A stretch of DNA of 32,000 nt from Candidatus Nanohalobium constans (GTDB lineage: Archaea > Nanohalarchaeota > Nanosalinia > Nanosalinales > Nanosalinaceae). Made by a program: the position numbers and the translations under genes. The notes beneath the pieces are model-generated. The model was not told where the DNA came from. It saw only the letters and a list, made by a program, of their open reading frames with translations, and searched no databases. The stretch is taken from assembly GCF_009617975.1 (NCBI RefSeq), contig NZ_CP040089.1:941464-973463 (forward strand), written 5' to 3'. Shown one piece after another: positions 3,522-27,420 of this stretch; position 1 is the stretch's first letter; every line of letters begins with the position of its first letter.

Positions 3522-3561
3522 ACATGTTTTTTATTGGCTTGCACACGCATGGAAAGGGATG

Positions 3562-3569
3562 TTTATAAA
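3562..3569 (+). promoter_or_regulatory. Putative TATA box (TTTATAAA) for secF-secD
   Basis: Palindromic TTTATAAA lies about 28 nt upstream of GTG 3594. The same spacing recurs upstream of most first-in-operon genes in this window. Confidence 0.4.
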
Positions 3570-3593
3570 CATTCTAAGACAGGAAGTTATGCT

Positions 3594-4511
3594 GTGAGCC
3601 TAGAACAGAGACTGGAAAAACGTTACTCCGAAATATACAACAACCATCAAAAATATTTCCTAGTCCCTCTAGCACTGCTTATGCTGGCAGTAGCAGTACT
3701 GGGCTTCAGCTACACTCAAAACGGAGAATTCTTTCAGAAAGGAACAGACTTCACCGGAGGAACCGAAGCACAGTTTCAGATAAACGGCTCATTCCCAACA
3801 ACAGAAATCGAGCAAGCGTTCTCAGATGCTGGAAAACCTGGAGCCAACGCAATAACACAGCAGACCAGCGAAGGAAAAAACTTACTAGTCGAAATACCGC
3901 CTCCAGACATCAATCAAAGCGAAGCAGAAGATATACTAACAGACGCAGGCTACCAAGTAGAAGTACTGCAGTTTAACTCGATTTCAGCTTCTGTATCCAA
4001 CCAGTTCTTCCTTCAGGCACAGATAGCATTTGTGCTAGCATTCACAGTCATGAGCCTAGTAATATTCATCGCATTCAAAGATATAACGCCCTCAATGGCC
4101 GTAATATTTGCAGCAGCAGGAGATATAATTATAGCAGGAGCTGGAATGGCTTTGTTAGGCATACCACTTACTCTAGGTTCGTTAGCAGCACTTCTAATGC
4201 TTATAGGTTACTCTGTCGACACAGATATCGTCCTATCAAGCAGAACACTGAAGAGAGAGAAAGACTCACTCCAATCTAGAATGTGGGAATCACTCAAAAC
4301 AGGAGTAACAATGAGCTCAGGAGGTATAGCAGGATTTACACTGCTCTACATAGTATCTTACGTCATAGTTGGTCCTTCAGAACTTTCCAACATTGCAGCA
4401 GTGATGGTAATCGGATTACTAGCCGACATGCCACTGACATGGCTTGGAAACACAGCAATACTGAAATCATACATTGAAGGAGAAGACTTGATCTACAGAG
4501 GTGGAGCATAA
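3594..4511 (+). CDS. secF: Protein-export membrane protein SecF
   Basis: The ORF is open from 3507 and has a C-terminal SecD/F-type TM core (LLMLIGYSVDTDIVLSSR). The start is uncertain. GTG 3594 lies about 28 nt downstream of a TTTATAAA box (3562-3569). ATG 3549 and ATG 3507 are alternatives; 3507 would overlap the aglB start. Confidence 0.85.
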   Translation: MSLEQRLEKRYSEIYNNHQKYFLVPLALLMLAVAVLGFSYTQNGEFFQKGTDFTGGTEAQFQINGSFPTTEIEQAFSDAGKPGANAITQQTSEGKNLLVEIPPPDINQSEAEDILTDAGYQVEVLQFNSISASVSNQFFLQAQIAFVLAFTVMSLVIFIAFKDITPSMAVIFAAAGDIIIAGAGMALLGIPLTLGSLAALLMLIGYSVDTDIVLSSRTLKREKDSLQSRMWESLKTGVTMSSGGIAGFTLLYIVSYVIVGPSELSNIAAVMVIGLLADMPLTWLGNTAILKSYIEGEDLIYRGGA

Positions 4512-4512
4512 A

Positions 4513-6189: not shown

Positions 6190-6214
6190 AACCACATTTT
6201 CCCCATATTTTTCT

Positions 6215-6967
6215 ATGAAAGTGCTGATAACCGGAGGCAGCAACGGCATAGGCAAAGCCACAGCCCAGAAACTGCAGCAGGAAGACCATGAAGCAATAAT
6301 TTTCGACAAGGAAAGACCGGATTACAGAGTTGATTTCTATCAGGGTGATGTCAGAGACGACGAAAGAGTCAAGGAAGTCGCCGAAAAAGCCGATTTCGAT
6401 GTACTGGTTAACTGCGCCGGTTTCTATGAATTAGGTAGCGTCGAAGACATGGAGAAAGAAACAGCAGAGAAAATATTCGACACAAATGTCCACGGATACC
6501 TCAACTTCATCAGACACTCAATGCCAACGCTAAGAGAAAAGAACGGGCGAATAGTAAACATCACCTCCGTAGCTGGAAGAGTTTCGATTCCCTTCTTCGG
6601 CACTTACTGCGGATCTAAGCACGCTGTCGAATCCATCAGCGACTCACTTAGAAGAGAACAAGACGAAGTAGAAGTCGCAATCGTAGAACCTGGAGTAATT
6701 GAGACAGGTTTCAACGAGAGAGCTAGAGAAGCTTTGGAAAAGTATCTGCCAGACTCATTTTATTCTGAAGAGTATGAAGAAATACTATTAGAAGATGGCC
6801 TAGATGGCGTCGATGCGGAGAAAGCGGCTGAAAAAGTTTTTAAAGCAGTTACAGATAAGAGGGCGAAGAGAAGATATCAGGTTCCATTCAGAGCAAAGTT
6901 TGCGATCCTAACAGGACTCATGCCTGCTGTTGTTCAGGATTGGATAATAGAGAAAGTAATGAGATAA
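6215..6967 (+). CDS. Short-chain dehydrogenase/reductase (classical SDR), substrate unknown
   Basis: Rossmann motif TGGSNGIGKA at the N-terminus, YCGSK (YxxxK) active-site motif, about 250 aa. An AATAAAA box lies about 27 nt upstream. Confidence 0.85.
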   Translation: MKVLITGGSNGIGKATAQKLQQEDHEAIIFDKERPDYRVDFYQGDVRDDERVKEVAEKADFDVLVNCAGFYELGSVEDMEKETAEKIFDTNVHGYLNFIRHSMPTLREKNGRIVNITSVAGRVSIPFFGTYCGSKHAVESISDSLRREQDEVEVAIVEPGVIETGFNERAREALEKYLPDSFYSEEYEEILLEDGLDGVDAEKAAEKVFKAVTDKRAKRRYQVPFRAKFAILTGLMPAVVQDWIIEKVMR

Positions 6968-12302: not shown

Positions 12303-12977
12303 CTACCTTGTGTCATCCGGAACTATATCCAGTTCTAGGTGGTACTTCTTCCCGTTTCTCTCTATATAGGCGTTACGATGTGGAGGATAGGTCAAAGCCC
12401 TTAACTCATCTATGAAATCTTCCTTCGATGTTTCTTCATTAAGCTTTATCCTTCTCTCATCTTCCAAGTCTTTCTTGTAGTGTGTGGTGCCTCTTCCAGG
12501 GCTTTGTTGTGTTTTCTGTATATTTCCTTGTTTGATATCAGCCCAGTTTTCCTTGAACTGCTGGACTTGCTCCCTCATCAATCTTTCATGCAAACTTTTC
12601 CCTGTGTCGTCAGGATATACCGGCACCTCTCTTCGGTCTATTATCGGACCGTGATCTATTTCTTCTGTCATTTGGTGTATTGATACGCCGGCAGGAGTAT
12701 CCTCGATTATAGGCCAGATATACGGATGTGCCCCTCTGTTATACGGCAGAAAGGATGGATGGAGATTGATTATTCCTTTTTCAGGGACTTCGATTATCTC
12801 TTTAGGTACTTTGTGTTCGAAGCCTGCTGAGATAACTATTTCTGGCTCCAGTTTTTCTATCAGCGATAGTTGGTCTTTCTCTGTAAGTAGTGCGAGGACA
12901 TCAGTGTCTTCTCTCTGGTTCAGCCAGTTGTAGATTTCTTCGCCCGCCTGATTTTGTCCCAGGAAAACTGCCTCCAT
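12303..12977 (-). CDS. Formyltransferase-family protein (Fmt/ArnA N-terminal-domain-like; probable sugar N-formyltransferase)
   Basis: INLHPSFLPYNRGAHP matches the N-10-formyl-THF transferase core (HxSLLPxxRG). At 224 aa it lacks the tRNA-binding C-terminal domain of Fmt. It sits between two nucleotide-sugar SDR genes. Confidence 0.75.
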   Translation of the reverse strand: MEAVFLGQNQAGEEIYNWLNQREDTDVLALLTEKDQLSLIEKLEPEIVISAGFEHKVPKEIIEVPEKGIINLHPSFLPYNRGAHPYIWPIIEDTPAGVSIHQMTEEIDHGPIIDRREVPVYPDDTGKSLHERLMREQVQQFKENWADIKQGNIQKTQQSPGRGTTHYKKDLEDERRIKLNEETSKEDFIDELRALTYPPHRNAYIERNGKKYHLELDIVPDDTR

Positions 12978-14010: not shown

Positions 14011-14370
14011 CTAATCTTCAAGTTCTCTAGTCTCAGAGTATTCTCTGTAATCTTTGTCGCTGGAAACTATCTTTTCTTCTCCAGATGCTACGAGATGTAG
14101 TGCATCGAAAGGAGTGAAGTCTTCCTCCTCTACATAGCTTGCTGCGGCTTCTACCTCTTTAATCTCTCCTTTTACATCAATCAACTCTATTGCTTCAGCT
14201 ACTACCCTCAACACATTCATATTTTCCCTGTATGCGATCAACATAAGTTCAATCAGGGTGTAGCGGGAAGTCCAAAGATCATCATTTTTCTTGTAAATTT
14301 CTCTGGCATTTTCCTGCAGCCAGTCATCATCTTTCAGTAGTGCCAGTACAAAATCTGTCTCAGCATACAT
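14011..14370 (-). CDS. PIN-domain toxin (VapC-like)
   Basis: 119 aa with acidic PIN residues in ETDFVLAL, FDALHL and SSDKDY. It lies 1 nt downstream of the AbrB-type antitoxin gene. Confidence 0.8.
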   Translation of the reverse strand: MYAETDFVLALLKDDDWLQENAREIYKKNDDLWTSRYTLIELMLIAYRENMNVLRVVAEAIELIDVKGEIKEVEAAASYVEEEDFTPFDALHLVASGEEKIVSSDKDYREYSETRELED

Positions 14371-14371
14371 T

Positions 14372-14596
14372 CTATCGGCCTGCCTCTTCCATAGCAGTCT
14401 CTAAAGCACCTTTCTTAAGCTCTTCTACAGACTTATCAGTGCCTTCAAACTCTTCTCTTAGTGCCTCAAGAGGATCATCAGAGACAGGGACCAGCATTAT
14501 CTTATCCCCTCTATCTATAATATGGAACTTCTCACCGAACTTCTCCCTCATCTCCTTGGGAATGTATACTCTACCATTATCTGCAGTAGTAGTCAT
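14372..14596 (-). CDS. AbrB/SpoVT-type antitoxin (VapB-like)
   Basis: MTTTADNGRVYIPKEMREKFG... is a swapped-hairpin AbrB-like N-terminus. ATG 14596 is preferred over the track start 14635 because a TTTAAA box at 14619-14624 lies about 25 nt upstream. Confidence 0.75.
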   Translation of the reverse strand: MTTTADNGRVYIPKEMREKFGEKFHIIDRGDKIMLVPVSDDPLEALREEFEGTDKSVEELKKGALETAMEEAGR

Positions 14597-14628
14597 AAAA
14601 CAAGAATATTTGTCAAAATTTAAAAATC

Positions 14629-14670
14629 TTACCAATAAGGGGGGGAAACGCCTATTCTTTTAATTGGTAA
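14629..14670. promoter_or_regulatory. Inverted repeat TTACCAAT-N26-ATTGGTAA in the control region shared by two divergent TA operons
   Basis: Perfect 8-bp arms at 14629-14636 and 14663-14670. TTTAAA (14619-14624) and TTTTAAT (14657-14663) boxes serve the two start codons. A further palindrome, AGTCATTATGACT (14680-14692), spans ATG 14687. Confidence 0.4.
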
Positions 14671-14686
14671 TGAGTAATTAGTCATT

Positions 14687-14896
14687 ATGACTACTGTTAC
14701 TATCAGCGAAGATACCCATAGAAAGTTGAAGAAGTTGAAGGAGAAAGAAAAAATCAGCTCTTTTGACGAACTTCTGGATAATATTGCAGAGGAGAAACTG
14801 GACATACCTTCATCCGAAGAGATGTTCGGCTCCATGGAAATTGAAGACAAAGAAGAGATTAGAGATCACGACGACAGAGCCGATAGATATGAGTGA
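14687..14896 (+). CDS. Archaeal VapB-type antitoxin (MTTVTISEDTHRKLKKLK family)
   Basis: 69 aa. The N-terminal TISEDTHRKLKKLKEKEKISSFDELL pattern is typical of small archaeal PIN-associated antitoxins, and the tail is acidic. Its stop overlaps the downstream PIN start. Confidence 0.7.
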   Translation: MTTVTISEDTHRKLKKLKEKEKISSFDELLDNIAEEKLDIPSSEEMFGSMEIEDKEEIRDHDDRADRYE

Positions 14897-15284
14897 ATAC
14901 TTGCTTGACACATGGGCGTGGATAGAGTTCTACATCGGAAGCGAGAAAGGGAAAGAAATTTACCAGAAAATAGAGGAAGCGAAGTGTTACACCTCAATAG
15001 TATCCTTAGCGGAAATGTCTGACAATTACCAGTCAGGAAACCTAAAATCAGACAATAAATGGAGCGAAATTAGAGGCTTTGTAGAGTCTAAAACAGAAGT
15101 AGTGACTTTAACGCCCGAAATATGCGGAAATGCAGGAAAAATAAAACAGCAAGAAAGAGAAAAATTCTCAGACTTCGGACTAATGGATGCAATAATACTG
15201 TCAACCGCCAGAAAAAACGACCTAGAATTAATTACAGGAGACAAACACCTAAAAGATAAAGAAAGAGCAAAAAAGTTAGAATAA
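14889..15284 (+). CDS. PIN-domain toxin (VapC-like)
   Basis: Starting at MSEYLLDTWAWIEF, it has PIN acidic residues in LLDT, SLAE, MDAIIL and TGDKHL. The track ORF start (14763) is an upstream extension that overlaps the antitoxin. Confidence 0.8.
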   Translation: MSEYLLDTWAWIEFYIGSEKGKEIYQKIEEAKCYTSIVSLAEMSDNYQSGNLKSDNKWSEIRGFVESKTEVVTLTPEICGNAGKIKQQEREKFSDFGLMDAIILSTARKNDLELITGDKHLKDKERAKKLE

Positions 15285-15298
15285 AGAGCTGGAATTCA

Positions 15299-16147
15299 TT
15301 ATTGCTTTCTTCTATCCAAGACAGGATTTACATTATCGAAAAATCTGTTTGAACTTGATTTTGCTACCCATACATTATTTTGCTGTATGTTACATTCTAC
15401 ATTGAGATTTTGAAGTATTTGCTGCACCATTTTCTTCTCTTGTTCATCATAGGAGCAGATTCTGGGCGACCCGCAAGGATGAAGATTTCCATCTGAATCG
15501 TATTGTCCTTCGATATATTTCCAGGCCTTCCCTTCTTCAAAAAGCCAATCCACTTTATTTTCCAAATTTTGTAGCCATTCAGCAAGTACTTGTGATGATG
15601 CCCAAACAGCGTCTTTGCCTTCTTTCTGTCCTGTATTAGGATTTAGACCTAAGGCTTTCAGGTTTTCTACAAATTTTTCAGCAAATTCTGAATCTTTGAC
15701 TTCAAGCCCTATTGTGCCGTTATTATCATGAAATCCATCTCCATCAATAACTCCTAGAATATAAGATAAAGATTCAGTTTGCCCGAATTTGACATCAATT
15801 TCATTTTCTTCGGCAAGTTTTCTGCATTTCTCAGCGACCTCTTCACTATTCCTGTATTCTTCTTGGTTTCTTGCTAAACCTAGATCCATTGCCTTGAGCT
15901 TTATGGCATTCCAACTTCTCTCTGGAAGTAATTCTGAAATCTCGGATTTATCTCCAGGATAATTTTCCCTCAATATCCGCTTTTCTTCTTCTGACCACGG
16001 GTCAGCGATATCCGACTTAATATCATATTCGCTCATCCATTTAGAGACAGAAGACTGTGTAACTCCTAATTTTTCACCAATCTGTCTTTGACTCAAATCC
16101 TCATCGTGGTATAACCTGTAAAGCTCTTCAGCGCTTACCTTAGACAT
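15299..16147 (-). CDS. Free-standing LAGLIDADG homing-endonuclease-like protein with N-terminal HTH and Myb/SANT-like modules
   Basis: Two LAGLIDADG-type motifs (YILGVIDGDGF and YIEGQYDSDGN) lie about 90 aa apart. The N-terminus has an HTH (LSQRQIGEKLGVTQSSVSKWM) followed by WSEEEKRILRENYPG...SWNAIKLKAMDLGL (Myb/SANT-like). The gene is AT-rich with T-ending codons, unlike its neighbours. There is no intein or intron host. Confidence 0.75.
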   Translation of the reverse strand: MSKVSAEELYRLYHDEDLSQRQIGEKLGVTQSSVSKWMSEYDIKSDIADPWSEEEKRILRENYPGDKSEISELLPERSWNAIKLKAMDLGLARNQEEYRNSEEVAEKCRKLAEENEIDVKFGQTESLSYILGVIDGDGFHDNNGTIGLEVKDSEFAEKFVENLKALGLNPNTGQKEGKDAVWASSQVLAEWLQNLENKVDWLFEEGKAWKYIEGQYDSDGNLHPCGSPRICSYDEQEKKMVQQILQNLNVECNIQQNNVWVAKSSSNRFFDNVNPVLDRRKQ

Positions 16148-16187: not shown

Positions 16188-17156
16188 TTAGAATGTTCCC
16201 GAAGCCATCAAAGGAACTTTAGACCCTGCTGCCGCAATAGGAACGGCCATGTACCCCAATTTTCTCAATTTATCCATAATCTCCTTGTCGTCTTTGTTTT
16301 GGGCTCTTCCTGCTCTTTCTTTGGTGTTTTCTACATCTTGTAGCCATGCAGGGATTTCATCGCTTTTGTCTGTGGATACTTCGCTTCCTAGGCTTCTGAA
16401 TCCTGCCCAGTACTTTGGTGAAATCGGTACATCGTCTTTGTTGAGTCCTTCCGGCAGATCTTCTTCTGTTTCCGGGTAGCTGTTGATTTCTACTCCTGTG
16501 ATGTCTGGCACCATGTGGAACCAGGATACATCCCATACATCTCTTTCGTCTAGTTGTAGGATGGGGTGTACTCTGATGTGGTCTGGGTCGCTTCTTGGAC
16601 TGTAGAAGTCTTCGTCACCTCTACTTTCGTGTTCGTCCCATCTTACTCCGTTGATCACTGCTTCAATATTGTGGTTTTCAAGCAGTTCGTGCATTGGAAC
16701 TGTTTTGAGAAGGTGGTTTCCTGCTTCTGTATCCATGAGCCATGGTACTTCTTCGTAGTCTCCTACTTCTTCAGCTGCTTCCTGATTTCTGTCGTTGAGT
16801 TCTGCCACAGGTACTTTGTCTCCTGGTTGGTCTGCTTTTTCTATTAGGTCTTCGTTTTTGGCCGTCATTACTTCGAATCCCCAGTTGTCGGCTAGTCTTT
16901 CGACATAGTCTTCGAGTTCGTCGAAGTGTTGTCCGTGGTCTACGAACATGAACTTGGGTTTGTCGAAGCCGTGTTCTTCGCAGACTCTTTTGACAAGCCA
17001 TGCTGTCAGTGTGGAGTCTTTCCCCCCTGTGAATCCGATTACTACATTGTCGGTGTCGTATTCTTCTAGTGCTTGTTTGACGACTTCTTCTCCTGCTCTG
17101 ATTTTAGCTTTTATCGGTGCGTTCTCAATTTCGTCTCGTGTTACAGGTGCTTCCAT
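16188..17156 (-). CDS. PP-loop ATP pyrophosphatase of the PAPS-reductase/CysD family (CysD-like)
   Basis: PP-loop GFTGGKDST. NGVRWDEHESRGDEDFYSPR and IRVHPILQLDERDVWD resemble CysD (GARRDEEKSRAKERxxSFR, RVFPLSNWTExDIW). ERAGRAQNKDDKEIMDKLRKLGYM resembles the CysD C-terminus (ERxGR..DRD...GYF). It has no CysH-type ECG[IL]H motif. ATG 17156 is preferred over TTG 17168. Confidence 0.8.
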   Translation of the reverse strand: MEAPVTRDEIENAPIKAKIRAGEEVVKQALEEYDTDNVVIGFTGGKDSTLTAWLVKRVCEEHGFDKPKFMFVDHGQHFDELEDYVERLADNWGFEVMTAKNEDLIEKADQPGDKVPVAELNDRNQEAAEEVGDYEEVPWLMDTEAGNHLLKTVPMHELLENHNIEAVINGVRWDEHESRGDEDFYSPRSDPDHIRVHPILQLDERDVWDVSWFHMVPDITGVEINSYPETEEDLPEGLNKDDVPISPKYWAGFRSLGSEVSTDKSDEIPAWLQDVENTKERAGRAQNKDDKEIMDKLRKLGYMAVPIAAAGSKVPLMASGTF

Positions 17157-17174
17157 AGATAGTATCAACTCTGT

Positions 17175-17366
17175 TTATTCTAGATATCCTAATTGTCTCA
17201 GTTTATCCGCGATCTCCTTTGCCTGATCATCGTCAAGCTCCTCTTGCTGGTTCTCTGAATCAGCCAGTTCTCTAAGCTTGTCTTGTACGAATCTTGATAG
17301 ATTGATGTGATTCTCATCGACAAACTCTGCCAAATCCTCAGGCAAAGAAATAGTCTTCCTCGGCAT
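17175..17366 (-). CDS. Ribbon-helix-helix (CopG-like) small DNA-binding protein, first gene of an operon with the CysD-like gene
   Basis: MPRKTISLPEDLAEFVDENHINLSRFVQDKLRE is an RHH pattern (beta strand followed by two helices); 63 aa. The track ORF (to 17618) is an extension that overlaps the flippase gene. A perfect 17-bp palindrome abuts the start codon. Confidence 0.7.
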   Translation of the reverse strand: MPRKTISLPEDLAEFVDENHINLSRFVQDKLRELADSENQQEELDDDQAKEIADKLRQLGYLE

Positions 17367-17367
17367 A

Positions 17368-17384
17368 ATGCATAACTTATGCAT
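17368..17384. promoter_or_regulatory. Perfect 17-bp palindrome ATGCATAA-C-TTATGCAT: putative RHH operator
   Basis: It lies 1 nt upstream of the RHH start codon (17366), between that codon and a TTATTAA box (17390-17396, about 27 nt upstream). Confidence 0.5.
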
Positions 17385-17407
17385 ATTGGTTAATAAGTGG
17401 TTGGTGA

Positions 17408-17420
17408 AGTTTAAACAGTT
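17408..17420 (+). promoter_or_regulatory. AGTTTAAACAGTT box: putative flippase promoter (TATA core 17410-17415)
   Basis: The TTTAAA centre is 28.5 nt upstream of ATG 17441. The 13-mer is 12/13 identical to 27761-27773. Confidence 0.4.
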
Positions 17421-17440
17421 CTTATCTTCAAACTTCAGGT

Positions 17441-18997
17441 ATGGGAGATGCCGATCAAAAAGCATTGAACGCACTGGCAAAGGGTGCTGGCGTGACTGCG
17501 ATAGGGATGGGTATTTCCAAGGTATTGACTTATCTTTACCGGGTTTCAATTGCCCGTTTTGTTGGTCCTGAGGCGTACGGTCAGTTGTCAACTGCTTTGA
17601 TGGTTGTCGGTATTGCAAGCACTGTCGCCTACCTGGCTCTGGGCTCAGGTTTGAAGAAGTTTATACCAGAATTCAGAAGTAGAGATGATTTTGCAAGTAT
17701 TAAGGGCATAGTTATCAGTGCACTCCAGTTAACCGTTCCTGTATCTATAATCATTTTCCTGGCAGTGTTCTTCGGAGCAGAGTTCATCGCTGTAACTATT
17801 TTTGAAAACCCGAAACTAGTTCCTCTCATAAAGATTCTATCGTTCACTATACCTGCAGGAACCCTTTCCAGACTCTTCTTCGATACAACACTGGGATTCA
17901 ACAAGATAATTTACAAGACCGGGACAGTCAGGATATTTCAAAACATTGTTCAGCTTGGGACAACCCTGATACTTCTTTTAATGGGTTTTAAAGTAGTGAG
18001 TGCTGCTTATGGCTGGTTACTGGGAACCGTAGTTGCTGCCATTCTCGGTTTCTACTTTATGGAGAAAAAAGTAGGTCCAATACTTTTCTCCAAGACTAAA
18101 CCCTCCTATCACCGAAAAAAGCTGCTCAGATTTTCCACCCCACTGCTACTCTCAGGAATAATAGGAACACTGCTCGGCTGGGCAGACACAGGACTGCTAC
18201 AATACTTCATGGAAGACCTTGAAGTAGGACTGTACAACGCAGCCCTGCCTACCGCCATACTGATACTTCTGCCTCACAAAGCAATTGGAAGCCTGGCAAT
18301 CACTTCATTCTCCGAGCTAAAGGAAAGAGACAAAGAAAGCGTAGAGAGCTCCATACAAAGAGCCACATACTGGGTTTTCTCACTTGTATTCCCTACCTTC
18401 CTCATAATGCTCCTATTCTCAGACAAAATACTGCAAATACTCTGGGGATCAGAATACACACAAGCCTCAATAGCACTCTCAATTCTAGCAACAGGATACC
18501 TAATAGACGCCCTAGTAGGCAGAGTAGGAAGCCTCCTCCAATCAGAAGGACACACAAAATACATACTATACAACAACACAGCAGCACTAACACTCAACAT
18601 CATACTCAACATCATACTAATACCTCCATACGGAATAGCTGGAGCAGCAATCGCCACAGCAACCTCCACCATACTAACCAACGTATTAATGTACATCGAA
18701 GTCCGGAAAAAAGAAGGAATAAACAGCATACCCCACAAAAAAATCTCAAAAATAGTACTAACCGGACTAATACCACTATCAATCATAATAACACTAGACA
18801 CAATACTCTTCACAAACACACCATACTGGTTCCTGATCCCAGCAGGAACAACCTACATTACAACCTACATCCTCCTATTCCTCAAAACAATAGGACTTGG
18901 AGAAGAAGAAAAAGAAGTATTTCTCAGGATAGGAGAGATCACAGGAACAAAAGATAAGGTTAAAAAAATACTGGCAACCATAGAGAGAAGAATTTAA
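17441..18997 (+). CDS. Oligosaccharide flippase, MOP/Wzx family (AglR-like)
   Basis: 518 aa with about 14 TM segments, the polysaccharide-biosynthesis-protein architecture and the glycosylation context. A TTTAAA box lies about 28 nt upstream. Confidence 0.8.
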   Translation: MGDADQKALNALAKGAGVTAIGMGISKVLTYLYRVSIARFVGPEAYGQLSTALMVVGIASTVAYLALGSGLKKFIPEFRSRDDFASIKGIVISALQLTVPVSIIIFLAVFFGAEFIAVTIFENPKLVPLIKILSFTIPAGTLSRLFFDTTLGFNKIIYKTGTVRIFQNIVQLGTTLILLLMGFKVVSAAYGWLLGTVVAAILGFYFMEKKVGPILFSKTKPSYHRKKLLRFSTPLLLSGIIGTLLGWADTGLLQYFMEDLEVGLYNAALPTAILILLPHKAIGSLAITSFSELKERDKESVESSIQRATYWVFSLVFPTFLIMLLFSDKILQILWGSEYTQASIALSILATGYLIDALVGRVGSLLQSEGHTKYILYNNTAALTLNIILNIILIPPYGIAGAAIATATSTILTNVLMYIEVRKKEGINSIPHKKISKIVLTGLIPLSIIITLDTILFTNTPYWFLIPAGTTYITTYILLFLKTIGLGEEEKEVFLRIGEITGTKDKVKKILATIERRI

Positions 18998-19722
18998 TCC
19001 CTTAAATCATACTCTCTGTTGGCTTCTCTCAGTCTTTCTGGAGTTCCAACATCTATTCGTGAACCTTGGATTTCATCATATCCCACTTTGTAACCATTTT
19101 CTCTCATCAAGTCTATTGCGTCGGTTAATTGGTACTCATCGCCTTTACCCTTCTCTATATTATCTATAGCCTCGAAGATTTGAGGTCCGAAGACATACAT
19201 ACCTGAGATACACAGATCAGAAGGTGCTTCATCAGCAGACGGCTTCTCAACCATTCCCTCCACCAAGTTATCATCTCCAGGTTCTAGGACGCCATAAGAA
19301 GTCACATCATCTGGCTTGAAAGCTCCGATGGTTGCGTCCATGCTGTTGTGTTTGTGGAACTTGACCAGCTCATTCATAGCCTTCTTATCATCAACATAGT
19401 TGTCTCCCAGAACCACTGCAAAATGTTCATCATTGATTACATGTTCTCCAGCTTTTACTGCTCCAGCTAGACCATTTCTGTCATCCTGAACCACATAAGT
19501 CAACTGTACGCCGTAATCATCACCAGATCCTAAGTAGTCTAGGATTGCGTGCTGTTTCCAGCCAACCACAATTACAATTTCTTCAATACCTGCTTCCTTC
19601 ATATCCTCAATACAGTGTTCGATCACTGCTTTTTCCCCTACAGGAAGAAGTTCCTTCGGATAAGCGTTCGTGAACGGCTCCATTCTAGTGCCTTTCCCAG
19701 CTGCCGGAATCAATCCTTTCAT
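18994..19722 (-). CDS. Sugar-1-phosphate nucleotidyltransferase (glucose-1-P uridylyl/thymidylyltransferase, AglF-like)
   Basis: MKGLIPAAGKGTRMEPFTNAYPKELLPV is the canonical G-x-G-T-R NTP-transferase N-terminus; 242 aa. It is divergent from the UDP-glucose dehydrogenase gene. Confidence 0.88.
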   Translation of the reverse strand: MKGLIPAAGKGTRMEPFTNAYPKELLPVGEKAVIEHCIEDMKEAGIEEIVIVVGWKQHAILDYLGSGDDYGVQLTYVVQDDRNGLAGAVKAGEHVINDEHFAVVLGDNYVDDKKAMNELVKFHKHNSMDATIGAFKPDDVTSYGVLEPGDDNLVEGMVEKPSADEAPSDLCISGMYVFGPQIFEAIDNIEKGKGDEYQLTDAIDLMRENGYKVGYDEIQGSRIDVGTPERLREANREYDLRD

Positions 19723-19753: not shown

Positions 19754-19776
19754 CCTTATCTCGGCAAACAAAAAGT

Positions 19777-21072
19777 ATGCACATCTCAGTCGTAGGAACA
19801 GGCTATGTCGGTTTGCCGGCAGGAACAGGATTGGCATCCAGAGGAAACCAAGTCACATGTATAGATATAGACGAAGAAAAAGTAGAGAAGATCAACAATG
19901 GAGACTGTCCAATCTACGAAGAAGATCTTCCAGAATTACTTGAAGAGATGGTTTCTCAAGGAAAACTTTCTGCTACTACAAACACTGCTGAAGCTGTAGC
20001 CGACTCAGATATTACTTTTCTGGCTGTCGGAACGCCGATGAACAATGATGGAAGCATAAATCTAGAGTATATTAAACAGGCTGCTGAAGACGCAGCAGAA
20101 GGAATAAAGGAAAAAGACGGATACCACGTATTCGTCGTTAAATCTACTGTAGTTCCTACAACGACCGAAGAAGAAATAATCCCTATACTAGAAGTAGTTT
20201 CCGGCAAAAAAGCCGGTGAAGACTTCGGGGTATGCATGAACCCGGAATTCCTGAGAGAAGGAACCGCACTAAACGACTTCCTAGAACCAGACAGAATAGT
20301 AATCGGCGAACTAGATGAGAAATCCGGAGACACACTGGAGAAAGTATACTCGGAATTTGATGCACCAATTATGAGAACTTCTCTGAAGGCGGCCGAACTG
20401 ATTAAATATGCTTCCAACTCTCTGCTAGCAACTAAAATTTCATTTATCAACGAGATCGGCAACCTGTGTAAAGAACTTGGTATAGATGTCTACGAAGTAG
20501 CAGACGGAGTTGGAATGGATCACAGAGTCAAAAGAGACTTCCTAGACTCGGGGGCCGGCTTCGGCGGGAGTTGTTTCCCAAAAGATGTGAGAGCACTTGC
20601 TTCATTTATGGAAGATCAAGGAGAAGAACCACGTATACTTGAAGATACAATCTCCGTCAACGAAGACCAGAAAACCAAACTAGTCGAACAGCTCGAAGAC
20701 CACTACCCTGACCTCTCAGGAAAGAAGATCGCAGTATTAGGCCTCTCATTTAAGCCTGGGACTGATGATATCAGACAAAGTCCAGCAATCGATATCATCT
20801 CAGAACTGAAAGAACTCGGAGCACAAATCAAGGCCTATGATCCAAAAGCGATCGAAAACATGAAAGAAAAACATCCGGATGTAGAATACACCTCCAGCTA
20901 CGAAGAAGCTCTGGAAGATACAGACGCAGGTCTCATAGTAACAGACTGGGACGAATTCAACGCCATCGATCGTGGAGACCTACAGACCATGAACAAAGCC
21001 TTACTGCTTGAAGGTCGCAGAATGAGCTACGATGTAGATGAAGAAAACAGAGAGGGTATTACATGGCCATGA
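19777..21072 (+). CDS. ugd: UDP-glucose 6-dehydrogenase (AglM/Ugd-like)
   Basis: MHISVVGTGYVGLPAG NAD-binding motif and catalytic GFGGSCFPKD motif; 431 aa from ATG 19777. The track start at 19549 is an extension that is antisense to the neighbouring gene. Confidence 0.92.
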   Translation: MHISVVGTGYVGLPAGTGLASRGNQVTCIDIDEEKVEKINNGDCPIYEEDLPELLEEMVSQGKLSATTNTAEAVADSDITFLAVGTPMNNDGSINLEYIKQAAEDAAEGIKEKDGYHVFVVKSTVVPTTTEEEIIPILEVVSGKKAGEDFGVCMNPEFLREGTALNDFLEPDRIVIGELDEKSGDTLEKVYSEFDAPIMRTSLKAAELIKYASNSLLATKISFINEIGNLCKELGIDVYEVADGVGMDHRVKRDFLDSGAGFGGSCFPKDVRALASFMEDQGEEPRILEDTISVNEDQKTKLVEQLEDHYPDLSGKKIAVLGLSFKPGTDDIRQSPAIDIISELKELGAQIKAYDPKAIENMKEKHPDVEYTSSYEEALEDTDAGLIVTDWDEFNAIDRGDLQTMNKALLLEGRRMSYDVDEENREGITWP

Positions 21073-21926
21073 GCGAAAACTCTGTACTAGTAATCGCTTT
21101 TGACGGTCTTGACAAAGAACTGATAGAGGAGTTTGATTTAGAGCATGTGAAGCAGGAAGAATACGGCTCTATAGATAACAAGACTGGAATGTCAAGTATA
21201 AAGACTTCAGAACTATTTGCTTCTTTCATAACCGGCAAAACAAGAGAAGAACACGGGATAAAAGGTTTAAAGAAAGAAGAACACTGGCTTCCTTCTTTAA
21301 TACCAAGCAAAGTCGCTCAAAAAGTTAGAGGCGGATATACTGTTAAACAGATTTTAAGAGATATTGCCAAACAAGGCGATAGACAATTCGATAAAAGAGA
21401 TCTAGAGGGCGATAGCATATTCGAAGAAATAGAGAATTCTAAAGCCATGTACGTTCCTGGATATAACCCAAGTCCATTCTGGACTAAACACGGAACAGGA
21501 AGAGATCTCAGAGACTTAAGCATGGAGAAAAGGCCTTGGGGTTACTTTTGGGACGCACATGAACATACCAGACGAAAGAACGAGATTTTTAGACCAGTGA
21601 ATAAATGGCACGACTTCCTGATGGTTCATATATTCAGGCCTGACATGCATCAGCACTGTTATGGAGATCCTAATTTATCGACTTACGATGAAAATAAACT
21701 GGAAGAGTTATACAAAGATACAGATGACCTAGCCGAGGAAATCTTAGAATACTTCTCCGAAGACTACGATACAATTATTTTTATGTCCGATCATGGTTTG
21801 CCTACGGAGAATGGGCATAACGAAAATGCTTTCTACAGTTCCAATAGAGAGTTATTTGGAGAGGAAGTTCCTAAGATTACGGACTTCTATGATAAGATCT
21901 TGGAGATTCAGGACGCTAGGTTATAG
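21063..21926 (+). CDS. Alkaline-phosphatase-superfamily protein, nucleotide pyrophosphatase/phosphodiesterase (NPP)-like, soluble
   Basis: VLVIAFDGLD (metal-site Asp strand), IKTSELFASFITGKTREEHG (aligns with the NPP TxPxHxSxxTGxxPxxHG motif, with Thr kept) and IIFMSDHG. A second ATG at 21069 forms ATGA with the ugd stop. Confidence 0.65.
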   Translation: MAMSENSVLVIAFDGLDKELIEEFDLEHVKQEEYGSIDNKTGMSSIKTSELFASFITGKTREEHGIKGLKKEEHWLPSLIPSKVAQKVRGGYTVKQILRDIAKQGDRQFDKRDLEGDSIFEEIENSKAMYVPGYNPSPFWTKHGTGRDLRDLSMEKRPWGYFWDAHEHTRRKNEIFRPVNKWHDFLMVHIFRPDMHQHCYGDPNLSTYDENKLEELYKDTDDLAEEILEYFSEDYDTIIFMSDHGLPTENGHNENAFYSSNRELFGEEVPKITDFYDKILEIQDARL

Positions 21927-23932: not shown

Positions 23933-25258
23933 CTATTCAACTCTCCATTCATACAGTACTTTTGCTTTGCTTTTCAATTCAGTGGCTTTATCCAGATCCA
24001 TTTTTTCGTTTTCTGTTAAGACCTCTGATTTCCAGACGTATTCACCTTCTGTGGTTAGGTCATATTTTATTTCTGAATTAATTAAAGAGAAGCTTTTGCG
24101 GTTGTAGATTTGTTCGCATCCTTCCGGTATTTTTCTTCCAAATTGTTGGACGAACCCTTTTCTGCCGAAGTATTCTGAGTTAAGTATTTCCCGGGATTCT
24201 ACCTCGCTGTCTTGAATGAGGCCGTGAATTATGTCTATCATTTCTGTGTGGCTGTAGAGACCTCTTTCATCAATCTCCAAGTCTAGTTCTCTACCTTTGC
24301 TGAAGATGATGCAAGGTACTTCTACGAGTTCTTTGTAGGTGCCGAGGTGGTGGCCTATTAGCTTGGTTCCTTGCTTTTCGTATTCTCCTATCAGTTCTCC
24401 ATGATCACCAAGAACAATGAAGACTGTATTCTCTGGAGCTTCTCTGTAGAAGTTTCTTATTTTTCTGTCGGCATATCTTATCGAGGCCTTGTATGCTTTC
24501 TGTCGTATATCGAGCTTGGTGTCCGAGAATCCTTCCGGCAGGTAATCTTCGAGGACCTTAGTCTGTGAGGCGTCTAGTACCTCTTCTTCAGAATAATCGG
24601 ATAGATATGACTCCCTGTCTTCTTCGTCAAATGTGTAAGGCGAGTGTACCGGCATGATGTTGGCGAATACGAATTCATCTTTCTCGGATTTGAGTTTCTT
24701 GTTCGCTTCTTCTAGAGTTCTTACTGTTTTCCCCGAGTTGTGGTCTGCTTCTCTTGAGGTGAACTTATCGGTTATGTGTCGGAAGAAACTTTTAGCTGAA
24801 TCAATATCTCGTTTCTTTATAGTCTTCTTGAAGAAGTAGCTGTATTTTTCTTTTCTGCCGGAGAATTCGTCGTCTTTCTGCCAGATCTCTTTCCAAGTAT
24901 CTCCTCCGAGGTCTTCAGTTGTCTGTACAAACTGCTGGAATCCCTCGCTGAACCCTGTTTCCTCTGTTATCAAATGGTTCTCTGTGAAGGCAGAGGTACT
25001 AAATCCTTTTGACACAAGCATCGATGTCAACATGTTCTCTTCGCTGAAATAGGTGTTTTCTGTCGTTGTTCCATGTTCTGAGGATAGCTTCCCTGAGAAA
25101 AGTGATGCGTGCGCTGGCACAGTCCAGGGAGAGTTAGCGTAGTAGTTTTCCAAATGAAGACCTTCTTCCGATTTCTCAGATAGGAATGGAGCTATCGAAT
25201 TATCTTTTACAAAATCTTTCTTTCTCCAGGTATCGACAACTAAGAGAACTATATTCAT
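23933..25258 (-). CDS. Sulfatase-fold alkaline-phosphatase-superfamily protein with Thr nucleophile motif (phosphodiesterase/phosphotransferase-like, not a formylglycine sulfatase)
   Basis: NIVLLVVDTWR, NSPWTVPAHASLFSGKLSSEHG (TxPxH...G....EHG as in NPP-type enzymes, with no C/S-x-P-x-R motif) and FIVLGDHGELIGE; 441 aa with no TM segment. Confidence 0.7.
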   Translation of the reverse strand: MNIVLLVVDTWRKKDFVKDNSIAPFLSEKSEEGLHLENYYANSPWTVPAHASLFSGKLSSEHGTTTENTYFSEENMLTSMLVSKGFSTSAFTENHLITEETGFSEGFQQFVQTTEDLGGDTWKEIWQKDDEFSGRKEKYSYFFKKTIKKRDIDSAKSFFRHITDKFTSREADHNSGKTVRTLEEANKKLKSEKDEFVFANIMPVHSPYTFDEEDRESYLSDYSEEEVLDASQTKVLEDYLPEGFSDTKLDIRQKAYKASIRYADRKIRNFYREAPENTVFIVLGDHGELIGEYEKQGTKLIGHHLGTYKELVEVPCIIFSKGRELDLEIDERGLYSHTEMIDIIHGLIQDSEVESREILNSEYFGRKGFVQQFGRKIPEGCEQIYNRKSFSLINSEIKYDLTTEGEYVWKSEVLTENEKMDLDKATELKSKAKVLYEWRVE

Positions 25259-26175
25259 TTGAAAACCCTTTTGACCTTCACAGCTATATTTATGAGATCT
25301 TTACCTGTCAGTCTCCTGAAAAGATATAGAACAAATAAAGCATAAGCCTCTAGCTCTAGAGAGTTATTTCTGATAGTTTTAGACAAGTGTTTTTCAGTTC
25401 CTCTGTTATCTCTCAGAGTGTACTGTTTCTTGGCTCTGTTAAGGTGGTGCCGGGCCTTTACTTTTGATCCGGCTTTTTCTAGTAGATCTGAGTGTTTTTC
25501 TGTTATCTTTTCTCGTCCTTCTGTTGCTACGTCCACCTGGCTGCTTTTGGAGTCGTCGCTTTGATGATAACGAACTAGAGGTTCATTGATATAGCCGAAC
25601 TCTGCTTCGTTTTCTATCAGTCTTATCCATAGGTCCCAGTCTTCTCCACTTGGAATATCTTCATCAAAACCGTTTATTTCTTCTAGAACCTCTTTCTTAA
25701 CTGAAACTTTGGAGGGCGAACCTATTTTGTCTCTTTCAAGTATCTGTTCAAGACCTAGCTTTTCTTCCTTCCTTACGATATCTTGAACCTCTCCGTCTCT
25801 GTACGCCTCTATAGCTGAGTATACTGCATCGTAATTGTTTTGCTTGAAATCTTCTGCTTCTTTCTCTAGCTTTTCTGGTTTCCATTCATCATCGTCATCT
25901 AGGAAAGCAATATATTTTCCAGAAGCATTTTGTATGCCGAGGTTTCTGGCAGATGAAACACCTTGCGCATTGTCGTTAATGTGTCTTTCCAGGTCAATAT
26001 CCTTGTCAAGACTTTCAACTATCTCTTTAACCTTCTCTTTATCTTCTTGTTCAGGATTGTCATCTACCACTATCAGCTCAAAGTCGGTGTAGGTCTGTGA
26101 TATAATACTTTCAAGAGCTCTCTCCAGCTTTTCATCTCTCTTATAGGTTGGAACTATTACGGAGAACTTAATCAT
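25255..26175 (-). CDS. Glycosyltransferase family 2 (GT-A)
   Basis: FSVIVPTYKRDEKLERALESIISQTYTDFELIVVDDNP and FLDDDDEW (DxD). ATG 26175 is preferred over GTG 26184. Confidence 0.9.
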   Translation of the reverse strand: MIKFSVIVPTYKRDEKLERALESIISQTYTDFELIVVDDNPEQEDKEKVKEIVESLDKDIDLERHINDNAQGVSSARNLGIQNASGKYIAFLDDDDEWKPEKLEKEAEDFKQNNYDAVYSAIEAYRDGEVQDIVRKEEKLGLEQILERDKIGSPSKVSVKKEVLEEINGFDEDIPSGEDWDLWIRLIENEAEFGYINEPLVRYHQSDDSKSSQVDVATEGREKITEKHSDLLEKAGSKVKARHHLNRAKKQYTLRDNRGTEKHLSKTIRNNSLELEAYALFVLYLFRRLTGKDLINIAVKVKRVFK

Positions 26176-27013
26176 CAACCGCACCTTTCACTTCTAACCA
26201 AGGCACTTCAACAAGTTCTTTTTCTTTTCTTCCTATGCTGTGGCCCCATCCTCCTTCTCCTAGTAGTTCTCCGTGGTCTGATGTGACTATTATTTTGCCT
26301 TCTAGTTGTTCTACTAGTTTTTCTACTTGTTCTAAGGCTAGCCTGAGGTCTTCTGTGTAGTATTGTTTGACTTGTTCTTCGCCTTGTTCTCTGGCTAGTT
26401 TTTCGTAGTTGTTTCCTAGCCCCAGTATTTCCTTAACTTTGGTCTGGAATCTGTAAGGTGTTAATTCGAATAAAGGGTTCCAGATCGGCCTTGTTGTATC
26501 CAGTATTTTCCTCAGTGTTGATTCTTCTTCGTCTTCTAGTTTGTTTTTTGGCGCCCAGTCGAAGTCTGTTTCTCCTAGTGAGATGAACGGTCTGTGTGGC
26601 TGTATGAAGTGTATTATCGTCTTTGAACCATCTAGGTTTTCTTCAGCTGTCTTCCTGAAGTCTTCTGGTCTTACTGTGTTTATTTCTTCGTCCCAGTCGT
26701 GTATCCAGGAGTCGACTATGTTCGTGAATTTGTCGGCTGCACTCCAGTCCCGGTCTTGACCGCTGACAAGATCTCCCAGTGACAGACCTTGGCCGTTGAT
26801 GTATGGGTTGGCGGAGATGTAGTTGTAGTTATATCTTCTGCCGTCGAAAGTGTTCCACAGCCATTCTGGTGTTGCGGAGCCTCTACTCTTGACTTTCTTC
26901 AGGTCGCCCTCTAGAAAGCCCTCATAGTTGTCTCTGAAGTAGTCGTATCTACATGCGTCTAGGATGATGAGGTAGTCCCAGTCTGTTCCGTGGATGTCTT
27001 GTTTCTGCGTCAT
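26168..27013 (-). CDS. Alkaline-phosphatase-superfamily protein (sulfatase/NPP-like), soluble
   Basis: From MTQKQDIHGTDWDYLIILDACRYDYF: SATPEWLWNTFDG (T-x5-N-x3-G) and IIVTSDHGELLGEGGWGHS. ATG 27013 forms ATGA with the PIN stop. The track start at 27136 is an extension across the PIN gene. Confidence 0.6.
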   Translation of the reverse strand: MTQKQDIHGTDWDYLIILDACRYDYFRDNYEGFLEGDLKKVKSRGSATPEWLWNTFDGRRYNYNYISANPYINGQGLSLGDLVSGQDRDWSAADKFTNIVDSWIHDWDEEINTVRPEDFRKTAEENLDGSKTIIHFIQPHRPFISLGETDFDWAPKNKLEDEEESTLRKILDTTRPIWNPLFELTPYRFQTKVKEILGLGNNYEKLAREQGEEQVKQYYTEDLRLALEQVEKLVEQLEGKIIVTSDHGELLGEGGWGHSIGRKEKELVEVPWLEVKGAVDD

Positions 27014-27420
27014 TCTTGTCCTCTCAATTCTAAGAATTTTTGTGGCTTTACTATTGTTATATTTTCGTATTCTTTTAGTTCTAGTAGGTCCGAGTCTCCG
27101 GAAATTATGTAGTCTGCATTGGCGGATACTGCGCATTCGAGAAATTTGTTGTCTTCAGGATCTTGTGATTTATCTATAGACTCTTCTGAACTGATGAATA
27201 GGAATTCAGATACCAGTATTTCCAGGAACTTTTGCTGCTCTTTTTCCGAAAAGTCAAACTTGTCGTATTCCAGGACTTCTGATACCTCATCAATCATTGA
27301 CTGTGTGGCAAAAGCATCTATTTCTTCTCCGAGAGCTAGTTCTAGGCATTCTTCTGGTTTGGCGTCCCAACCAATAGCTGAAATCAAGACATTTGTGTCT
27401 AAAACTACTTTCTCGCCCAT
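27010..27420 (-). CDS. PIN-domain toxin (PIN_3/TIGR00305-like)
   Basis: VVLDTNVLISAI...DPEDNKFLECAVSANADYIISGDSDLLEL is the characteristic family pattern; 136 aa. Confidence 0.85.
   Translation of the reverse strand: MGEKVVLDTNVLISAIGWDAKPEECLELALGEEIDAFATQSMIDEVSEVLEYDKFDFSEKEQQKFLEILVSEFLFISSEESIDKSQDPEDNKFLECAVSANADYIISGDSDLLELKEYENITIVKPQKFLELRGQE

Follow-up and report, generated by a model that had tools for sequence, protein, structure and literature searches.

Small ribbon-helix-helix (RHH) autorepressors and antitoxins (Arc, CopG and MetJ; CcdA, RelB and ParD) are built on an N-terminal strand-helix-helix core and bind operators of two symmetric sub-sites that lie one helical turn apart and overlap the core promoter. 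The antitoxins among them are encoded by the first gene of their operons; through a C-terminal peptide, which follows a flexible linker, they bind the protein encoded with them, and this peptide modulates repression. CysD of the GTP-coupled ATP sulfurylase CysDN (NodP) combines a PP-loop and the PF01507 fold with an [FY]RSLG motif and a C-terminus of the form ERxGR...GY[FM], and the same pathway position is held elsewhere by Sat-CysC pairs or fused 3'-phosphoadenosine 5'-phosphosulfate (PAPS) synthases. In the cysteine synthase complex, the C-terminal tail of CysE docks into CysK, which is also used by CdiA-CT and CymR. Here, we examined a 32,000-nucleotide stretch of Candidatus Nanohalobium constans (contig NZ_CP040089.1, positions 941,464 to 973,463; hereafter the window) in which a gene for a small RHH-type protein and a gene for a CysD-like PP-loop enzyme encode a common C-terminal tail and lie behind an exact palindrome. 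Both proteins are 100% identical to Candidatus Nanohalobium constans LC1Nh proteins. The open reading frames (ORFs), the gap between them, both tails, the enzyme's extension and the palindrome had been described before in a sequence-only reading of the window, and all proved exact on re-check:

16188-17156, reverse strand: gene of the CysD-like PP-loop enzyme, 322 aa, PAPS_reduct family, containing ...NKDDKEIMDKLRKLGYM and 19 residues after it; its ATG lies 18 nt past the RHH stop codon
16191-16247, reverse strand: the 19-residue extension of the enzyme after LGYM, AVPIAAAGSKVPLMASGTF
16248-16286, reverse strand: tail of the enzyme, KEIMDKLRKLGYM, the actual C-terminus in nearly all homologues
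17013-17036, reverse strand: PP-loop ATP-pyrophosphatase motif GFTGGKDS, enzyme residues 41-48
17175-17366, reverse strand: gene of the putative RHH-type regulator (LC1Nh_1186), 63 aa, ending in ...DDDQAKEIADKLRQLGYLE
17181-17219, reverse strand: C-terminal tail of the RHH protein, KEIADKLRQLGYL (LGY motif)
17223-17258, reverse strand: acidic linker of the RHH protein, residues 37-48, SENQQEELDDDQ, poorly conserved, between the RHH core and the tail
17368-17384, no strand: operator palindrome ATGCATAACTTATGCAT, 17 bp, exact
17389-17397, reverse strand: TATA-like box of the RHH promoter, CTTATTAAC, at about -30 to -22 from the RHH ATG

As the sequence-only reading had stated, the palindrome stands between the TATA-like box and the RHH start codon. 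It is composed of two ATGCAT boxes, each self-symmetric, with 11 bp from centre to centre (ATGCATAA-S-TTATGCAT; ATGCATAASTTATGCAT as a search pattern), and no second copy was found in the window even when up to three mismatches were allowed. A scan of one genome per species yielded 22 nanohaloarchaeal loci. The palindrome precedes the RHH gene in 17 nanohaloarchaeal loci with 0-2 mismatches (three in L002 and L014), always a few bases past a TATA-like element and between -6 and +5 nt from the RHH start codon; outside the window this element is TTTATTAA, TTTAAA or TTAATAAA, no more than about 10 nt upstream of the palindrome. Information content reaches 1.73 bits per position within the palindrome, against 0.78 in the TATA zone and 0.24 in the 5' flank. 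Since the spacing to the ATG varies (-6, 1, 3, 4 or 5 nt) and thereby breaks the frame, the palindrome is non-coding, and hence the in-frame 'MHKLCI' of some annotations is not coding either. Its 8-bp stem with a 1-nt loop is unable to form a hairpin, which argues against a role at the RNA level. The TATA box is centred about 27 nt ahead of the ATG, so that the transcript is probably leaderless or nearly so and the operator would occupy about -18 to -2.

The strongest evidence for a regulatory unit comes from genomes in which the enzyme gene is unlinked from the RHH gene (L018; L030/31, of the same metagenome-assembled genome as L009; and L032/33). In each of them the enzyme has its own TATA box and a perfect palindrome. 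Thus the operator follows the enzyme gene, implying that RHH protein, palindrome and enzyme form one unit, and the earlier proposal of an RHH-type regulator with a palindromic operator is supported by about 17 RHH promoters and three independent enzyme promoters. By this pattern of conservation, the palindrome is a genuine phylogenetic footprint. No copy of it was found at the non-nanohaloarchaeal loci. In Ca. Nanohalococcus occultus (L002), the operator at 5781-5797 reads ATACATAACTTAAGTAT, with a G3 to A change in the left arm mirrored by C15 to T in the right arm; this symmetry hints at co-evolution with the slightly divergent RHH protein of this organism (MARKTISLPDELAEF...).

The AlphaFold2 (AF2) monomer model of the small protein contains an extended segment (residues 1-9), helices at residues 10-18 and 23-40, a break, and a further helix at residues 46-58, with predicted local distance difference test (pLDDT) values below 50 for linker residues 40-43. 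In this model the protein fits the pattern of an RHH-type regulator, namely strand-helix-helix, acidic linker and C-terminal tail helix. As in the RHH antitoxins, it is encoded by the first gene of an operon, and a flexible linker connects its core with a C-terminal peptide. In contrast to them, the downstream gene encodes a conserved metabolic enzyme and not a toxin, the tail is common to several non-homologous enzymes, and Pfam models of RHH families were matched below threshold only, the best being CcdA (E = 0.0022; 18.8 bits against a cut-off of 22.4). No match was obtained in NCBIfam, hhalign against the RHH_1 domain of a neighbouring protein gave E = 0.15, and a PDB profile search returned insignificant matches to the tail region only. 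Homologues are annotated as Arc/MetJ-type or CopG by JGI and NCBI, among them P0121, a 100% match to the window protein.

A homology search listed 287 relatives of the RHH protein, the top matches all being nanohaloarchaeal and 76-97% identical, and its profile found just two full-length clusters among 1.8 billion representatives, some of the matches being uninformative repeat proteins. Conservation of the tail in this family, which the sequence-only reading had made a test of its proposal, was found in part: E51, I52, K55, L56, L59, G60 and Y61 are invariant across 20 homologues, whereas more distant relatives keep the core ISLPxDLxxFVxExxINLSRFVQxKL and lack the tail. The tail therefore appears to have been added to an older RHH core within the nanohaloarchaeal clade.

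The tails of the regulator and the enzyme have KEIxDKLRxLGY[LM] in common and agree in 10 of 13 residues and 29 of 39 nucleotides (16248-16286 versus 17181-17219). BLASTP aligned the two proteins with E = 2e-5 (16 identities in 32 positions), and a profile-profile comparison of the two families with hhalign gave E = 1.5e-4 across 15 tail columns; by both comparisons the similarity exceeds chance. In an alignment of 30 enzyme homologues, M294, L297, R298, G301, Y302 and M303 of the tail are invariant. The likeness of the tails thus stands at the protein level. The nucleotide identity adds nothing to it, because ten identical residues with shared codons (2-3 matches per codon) already impose such an identity, and 29 of 39 is not independent evidence of a recent duplication. 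DNA-level duplication was accordingly rejected as a separate line of evidence. The idea of a partial duplication between the two genes, which had been offered as one origin of the likeness, found no specific support either, the motif being carried by at least five protein families.

These families were recognized when all 2295 stop-to-stop ORFs of the examined loci were inspected: 53 terminate in [LIMV]GY plus 0-3 residues, and 50 of them belong to RHH-A (the family of the window regulator), the CysD-like enzyme, RHH-B (a second family of small RHH-like proteins, 66-74 aa), sulfatase/AlkP-like proteins (411 and 479 aa, plus fragments) or adenosine 5'-phosphosulfate (APS) kinase. The consensus across families is an acidic run followed by [EK]-[IV]-x-[EDQK]-[KR]-L-x-x-L-G-Y-[LMIVK] and 0-2 residues, or in shorter form an acidic linker plus [IV]xx[KR]LxxLGY[LM] at the C-terminus; the acidic run ahead of the tail is thus present in the other tail-bearing families as well. 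APS kinases with the tail were found in four phyla, namely Nanohaloarchaea, Aenigmatarchaeota, Halobacteria (Halorubrum and Haloparvum) and the bacterial Bipolaricaulota. RHH-A and RHH-B resemble each other with E = 2.5e-5 over helix B, linker and tail. The tail is hence not private to the regulator-enzyme pair, as had been supposed, and is instead a portable C-terminal motif. In the loci examined, it seems to mark proteins of the sulfate pathway and their regulators across non-homologous folds and phyla, and two RHH-like families appear to have gained it exactly where they head sulfate-activation operons.

Two other C-terminal patterns were noticed. A protein of the representative library (P0453, 1350 aa, apparently from a high-GC bacterium) has about 12 tandem units of about 75 residues, each terminating in ...SAQRVAERLRELGY[DH]xP, so that the string ERLRELGY also occurs inside a repeated helical domain. 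AlkP-like (Phosphodiest) paralogues of the clusters examined have a different, acidic ending, E[ED][IL][DES][VF] at the C-terminus (for example EDIEV, ESIEV, EDISV, VEDISF, ELDNLDF and SGIDF), which is a second family-wide C-terminal motif in this neighbourhood (L004:2083-2946, L005:2598-3677, L006:2599-3666, L009:671-2149, L010:1010-2404, L013:2428-3294, L015:959-2383, L017:5217-6653 and L019:2518-3960).

The enzyme matched PF01507 (PAPS_reduct) with E = 5e-22, and its residues T43, G44, G45, K46, D47 and S48 are invariant in 30 homologues; it therefore has both elements by which a CysD-type protein is recognized, a PP-loop of the SGGKDS type and a PAPS_reduct domain. It also has the [FY]RSLG motif and a C-terminus of the ERxGR...GY[FM] type, comparable to the ELKKRQGYF with which CysD of Escherichia coli ends. 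The best PDB match by sequence was CysD 1zun_A, an entry of 204 modelled residues, and phmmer ranked CysD (2.7e-6) ahead of FAD synthase (2e-4). Scores against the CysH models were 46 of 154 bits (PRK02090) and 35 of 165 (TIGR00434), both under the cut-off. The sole cysteine, C59, is not invariant and the ECG[LI]H motif is lacking, so the enzyme is not a CysH-type reductase. Neither the window ORFs scanned with Pfam nor the related loci listed contained the EF-Tu-like GTPase CysN, and in both respects the earlier reading, which had noted the lack of a CysN partner and of the CysH redox motif, was right. The enzyme differs from CysD in this lack of CysN and in forming a distinct clade, with only Nanohaloarchaea and Halobacteria among the matches listed.

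A search with the enzyme returned 1248 hits, and the named ones among the best 120 all belong to Nanohaloarchaea or Halobacteria, the members of the two groups being 50-54% identical in the aligned set. Homologues are mostly 304-305 aa long in Nanohaloarchaea and about 320 aa in Halobacteria and end in LGYM; the 16 that were retrieved terminate in ERAGRAQ[ND]K..[IL]M.[KR]LR.LGYM, barring a few short extensions. The tail of the enzyme is thus probably ancestral and terminal. In relatives, a stop codon (TAA, TAG or TGA) directly follows the ATG of LGYM, and it is lost in N. constans; the 19-residue extension results from this lineage-specific stop-codon loss and reads into the former 3' region. 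The extensions of the window enzyme and of L030 have GCCGTTCC in common and then diverge, and independent extensions after LGYM occur in L014, L032 and the haloarchaeal P0090. The AF2 model of the enzyme has a mean pLDDT of 84.7 with a confident core; the tail is modelled as a short helix (291-299, pLDDT about 68) without confident packing, as would be expected of a segment that requires a partner, and residues 306-322 of the extension are modelled as disordered (pLDDT below 50). In one haloarchaeal metagenome protein of this family (P0083, 404 aa), an internal stretch of about 85 residues with the PP-loop segment is duplicated in tandem, so that GLEQYENPAVMWTGGKDSTLTLYFINQVAEK... is present twice.

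The pathway context of the pair was read from related loci. The usual gene order is RHH, DUF2061 (69 aa, PF09834), a 255-aa Phosphodiest protein (PF01663) and the CysD-like enzyme, sometimes with toxin-antitoxin (TA) modules or further AlkP-like genes inserted. Of about 18 loci with sufficient sequence, 15 have a CysD-like gene, or Sat-CysC in the case of L015, downstream of the RHH gene, which agrees with the co-occurrence that the sequence-only reading had put forward as a check. The direct adjacency seen in the window is the exception and not the norm, as it recurs only in L002 and L003, with DUF2061 and the 255-aa Phosphodiest gene usually intervening elsewhere; tblastn found neither of these two genes, nor an APS kinase gene, in the window. 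The window pair may therefore be regarded as the reduced core of an RHH-DUF2061-Phosphodiest-CysD-like operon within an AglB-type glycan cluster.

In one nanohaloarchaeon (L015), RHH and DUF2061 are followed by ATP sulfurylase (PF01747, E = 3.5e-88; PUA_2) and APS kinase (PF01583, E = 9e-59), and a PHP phosphoesterase is encoded beside them. Sat and CysC have here replaced the CysD-like enzyme within one operon by non-orthologous displacement. A locus of Aenigmatarchaeota (L029) begins with a different small RHH-like protein that has the tail; Sat, a tailed CysC, a protein resembling cytidylyltransferases and a Phosphodiest protein of 257 aa come after it. A Halorubrum locus (L028) has a sulfotransferase, Sat and a tailed CysC inside a glycan cluster. 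In L015 and L026-L029, classical ATP sulfurylase adjoins an APS kinase with the LGY tail; these pairs hold the same pathway position as the window enzyme, which is a non-homologous CysD-type protein without a kinase. DUF2061 itself is known from a nod locus of Mesorhizobium, beside nodH, nodP and nodQ. The Sat/CysC swap in L015, the L029 and L028 loci, the Mesorhizobium context and the glycan genes of the window itself together favour sulfate activation for the sulfation of surface glycans or lipids, and the supply of activated sulfate for glycan sulfation, which the sequence-only reading had mentioned last among its alternatives, is the best fit to these operons.

We propose that the RHH protein would repress its own operon and the enzyme gene. 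By analogy with Arc, CopG and MetJ, two RHH dimers may occupy the two ATGCAT boxes, 11 bp or one helical turn apart on the same face of the DNA, and an operator so occupied, between TATA box and transcription start, would block recruitment of RNA polymerase to the promoter of RHH and enzyme; for relocated enzyme genes, the same site would act at the enzyme's own promoter. The enzyme would be a CysD-type PP-loop adenylyltransferase that most likely makes APS for glycan or lipid sulfation without a CysN GTPase. The tail may be a docking helix by which the CysD-like enzyme, APS kinase, sulfatase-like proteins and the two RHH-like families associate with each other or through one receptor, and on the repressor it could make DNA binding depend on how much of the enzymes is present or on their state, like the partner-binding C-terminal tails of RHH antitoxins. 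In concept this resembles the cysteine synthase complex, likewise of sulfur metabolism, where C-terminal peptides of different proteins dock onto an enzyme and a regulator is tied to it; the proteins and the peptide here are others, the peptide is present on enzymes too, and its docking is a proposal.

Support is good for both the operator and the pathway context, and a regulator that acts through this operator on a sulfate-activation module is quite probable. Docking of the tail and coupling through it fall a little short of an even chance, and the combined reading, an autorepressor of a sulfate-activation and glycan-sulfation module with a portable docking helix common to the pathway enzymes, has somewhat better than even prospects. 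A more ambitious form of it is doubtful: that the LGY tail is a hitherto unrecognized portable docking peptide of sulfation pathways in prokaryotes that builds one complex of CysD-like, APS kinase and sulfatase-like transferases, and that two unrelated repressor families of RHH-like proteins in DPANN archaea captured it to read the occupancy of this complex and adjust transcription to it. The archaeal ribosomal stalk also ends in an acidic linker and a hydrophobic helix, and, going by this resemblance, the tail might bring in a translational GTPase, for instance aEF1-alpha, where CysN is missing; we consider this very unlikely.

Several observations weigh against the proposed mechanism. The RHH assignment draws on the secondary-structure pattern, the source annotations and the sub-threshold CcdA match; Foldseek with the monomer model found no match, and a lone monomer is unable to form the ribbon. 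The best NCBIfam matches of the enzyme are CysD models, but its scores are far under their cut-offs (PRK05253, 75.4 of 195 bits; TIGR02039, 49.2 of 396.6; PRK12563, 49.2 of 413). By Foldseek its fold is equally near FMN adenylyltransferases, APS/PAPS reductases and CysD, and thus the fold leaves the substrate undecided. Because several lineages tolerate an extension after LGYM, the protein need not terminate exactly there. At two haloarchaeal loci, homologues of the enzyme (about 52% identity) stand in other contexts and have no RHH gene: the Haloplanus gene (L001:5214-7755) is flanked by a divergent HTH_10 regulator and a Dph6-like (Diphthami_syn_2) PP-loop gene, and the Halodesulfurarchaeum gene (L025:3953-5972) directly follows an AbrB-PhoU regulator. 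As the palindrome was not found at the haloarchaeal loci examined either, the RHH regulator is probably specific to the nanohaloarchaeal clade. No gene is common to all contexts of the tail, the Bipolaricaulota loci consisting only of Sat and tailed CysC, so that binding of the tails to one another, or to a housekeeping protein, is a more economical explanation than a dedicated receptor; for the archaeal operons only, DUF2061 is a candidate. Within the 32-kb window, neither APS kinase nor a canonical sulfotransferase was found.

The tail might alternatively be a generic self-association helix, coiled-coil-like and amphipathic, that serves each protein's own oligomer (an RHH tetramer on the operator, dimers of the enzyme) without cross-talk between regulator and enzyme, the likeness being due to convergence or modular reuse. 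Its hydrophobic positions (I/V, L, L and M/L) at 4-3-3 spacing, the dimer-dimer contacts that a two-box operator requires, the lack of a receptor gene common to all contexts in the loci examined, and the tail helix modelled in both proteins without confident packing on the enzyme would all agree with this. We nevertheless regard it as rather unlikely, since a generic helix would not require L-G-Y to stay strictly invariant over four phyla and families without homology, the tail is limited, at the loci examined, to proteins of one pathway (50 of the 53 C-terminal [LIMV]GY ORFs), and two unrelated RHH-like families in two phyla have it precisely when they head sulfate-activation operons. A membrane-targeting amphipathic helix, as in the C-terminal sequences of MinD and FtsA, is less probable still. 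It would bring sulfate-activating and sulfatase-like enzymes to the assembly of lipid-linked glycans and could sequester the repressor, possibly via DUF2061. Such a role would suit a short, basic, amphipathic tail at the extreme C-terminus after a flexible acidic linker, the DUF2061 protein with its two transmembrane segments that follows RHH in both the CysD-like and the Sat/CysC versions of the operon, and a pathway that works on membrane-linked glycans. On the other hand, helices that target membranes can vary widely in sequence, but G and Y of this tail are invariant; neither the window nor L002, L003, L013, L021, L022 or the Bipolaricaulota and Halorubrum loci have DUF2061; and bacterial CysD, which has a related ending, is soluble.

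With regulator and operator unchanged, the enzyme itself could be an FMN adenylyltransferase (a FAD synthase of the eukaryotic type) or another adenylyltransferase that activates phosphate or carboxylate groups for glycan modification, with the AlkP-like Phosphodiest protein as transferase. The top structural matches are indeed human and yeast FAD synthases (8ron and 3g5a; template modelling scores of 0.45-0.53, 14-18% identity), the scores lie below threshold for every CysD, CysH or related model, CysN is missing from the window, the neighbours in Halobacteria are a Dph6-like PP-loop enzyme or an AbrB-PhoU regulator instead of sulfur genes, and the enzyme is highly conserved in reduced genomes. 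The best sequence matches, however, are CysD models and CysD 1zun, and the [FY]RSLG motif and the ERxGR...GY[FM] ending are of the CysD type; moreover, the same RHH-DUF2061 operon holds Sat and CysC in L015, Phosphodiest travels with Sat-CysC in L029, and the tail is common to APS kinase. An enzyme of this other kind seems rather unlikely. Hardly credible by now is a TA-like or DNA-modification defence module, that is, a Dnd/Ssp-type enzyme with an RHH antitoxin or regulator, to which the sequence-only reading had pointed. The layout does recall type II TA modules (a small tailed RHH gene, an 18-nt gap and a promoter palindrome), and TA modules and an HTH-LAGLIDADG gene adjoin the pair. But the match to the SspD PP-loop in PADLOC is weak (20.5 bits, residues 39-102, covering the PP-loop only), no DndA/D/E or SspA/B/C partner genes were found in the window, and the pair occurs in single copy and in conserved synteny within the glycan cluster, with 65-97% conservation between nanohaloarchaeal genera. 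RHH and the enzyme are separated by DUF2061 and Phosphodiest in most genomes, which departs from the type II TA arrangement, and the TA and endonuclease genes are locus-variable insertions.

The window as a whole is an AglB-centred glycosylation cluster with epimerases, nucleotide-sugar enzymes and GT1-, GT2- and GT8-like transferases. Its other features include:

1-870: GT4 phosphotransferase
852-3521: STT3/AglB oligosaccharyltransferase
3507-6189: SecF/SecD
12303-12977: N-formyltransferase
15299-16147: HTH-LAGLIDADG gene directly after the enzyme, with a homing-endonuclease match in PADLOC
17409-17417, forward strand: TATA-like box GTTTAAACA, about 28 nt before the ATG of the divergent flippase gene
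17441-18997, forward strand: Wzx/MurJ-type glycan flippase (Pfam Polysacc_synt, Polysacc_synt_3 and MurJ)
18994-19722: NTP_transferase, without an RHH part
19768-21072: UDP-glucose dehydrogenase
21063-21926: Phosphodiest protein
23933-25258: sulfatase-family protein
26168-27136: distant AlkP-like protein (Sulfatase, E = 0.012)

Two TATA-like boxes stand back to back in the 74-bp divergent intergenic region (17367-17440) between the RHH and flippase genes, and the same divergent layout is present in L003, L008, L009, L010 and L020. The flippase belongs to the context of the RHH-enzyme module, and its co-regulation is possible. TA modules (PIN/VapB, PIN/AbrB, HEPN/MNT-like and AbiEii) and HTH-LAGLIDADG genes are inserted variably in or beside the RHH-enzyme operon (window 14011-16147; L006:5416-6082; L010:4836-5461; L023:2364-3021; L030:1783-3941 and 4963-6605; L032:1715-2305). 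Because they vary between loci and interrupt the operon at differing points, they are insertions and not partners of the pair, as their proximity had at first suggested. In L030, too, an HTH-LAGLIDADG gene (4963-5814) comes directly after the enzyme and overlaps its extended end. The 3' terminus of the enzyme gene resembles a hot spot for insertion, and this may be why its stop codon was lost more than once. The same glycan clusters also contain fusion proteins with an RHH_1 domain (E = 1e-5) at the N-terminus and a sugar nucleotidyltransferase (PF00483) behind it, in which a DNA-binding domain is thus attached directly to a nucleotide-sugar enzyme (L003:7164-7910; L019:7164-7910; L030:7340-8083; L032:4070-4816).

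RHH autorepressors with two-box operators are ordinary. What appears to be new is a nanohaloarchaeal sulfate-activation module with its own regulator, a CysD-type enzyme without CysN and, above all, the shared portable peptide. In the literature searched, we found no account of such a module, of a CysN-less CysD-type enzyme or of the shared peptide, and no description of the C-terminal extension of the tailed APS kinases. Two comparative-genomics accounts of Nanohaloarchaeota do not mention sulfate activation, and nothing useful emerged from searches on the CysD C-terminus, on regulation of sulfate activation by RHH proteins or on PAPS-reductase-like proteins of haloarchaea.

Nanohaloarchaea are obligate symbionts, and their surface glycans plausibly mediate contact with the haloarchaeal host. 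If the proposed module is real, the locus would be the first to offer a candidate regulator, an operator and enzymes for sulfation of these glycans, with an operator (two ATGCAT boxes at 11-bp spacing) defined well enough for direct testing. It also raises the question of how a CysD-type ATP sulfurylase operates without the CysN GTPase. If the tail docks, it would be a prokaryotic short linear motif that unites non-homologous pathway enzymes and a transcription factor across archaeal and bacterial phyla, and it would serve as a simple sequence flag for locating sulfation machinery.

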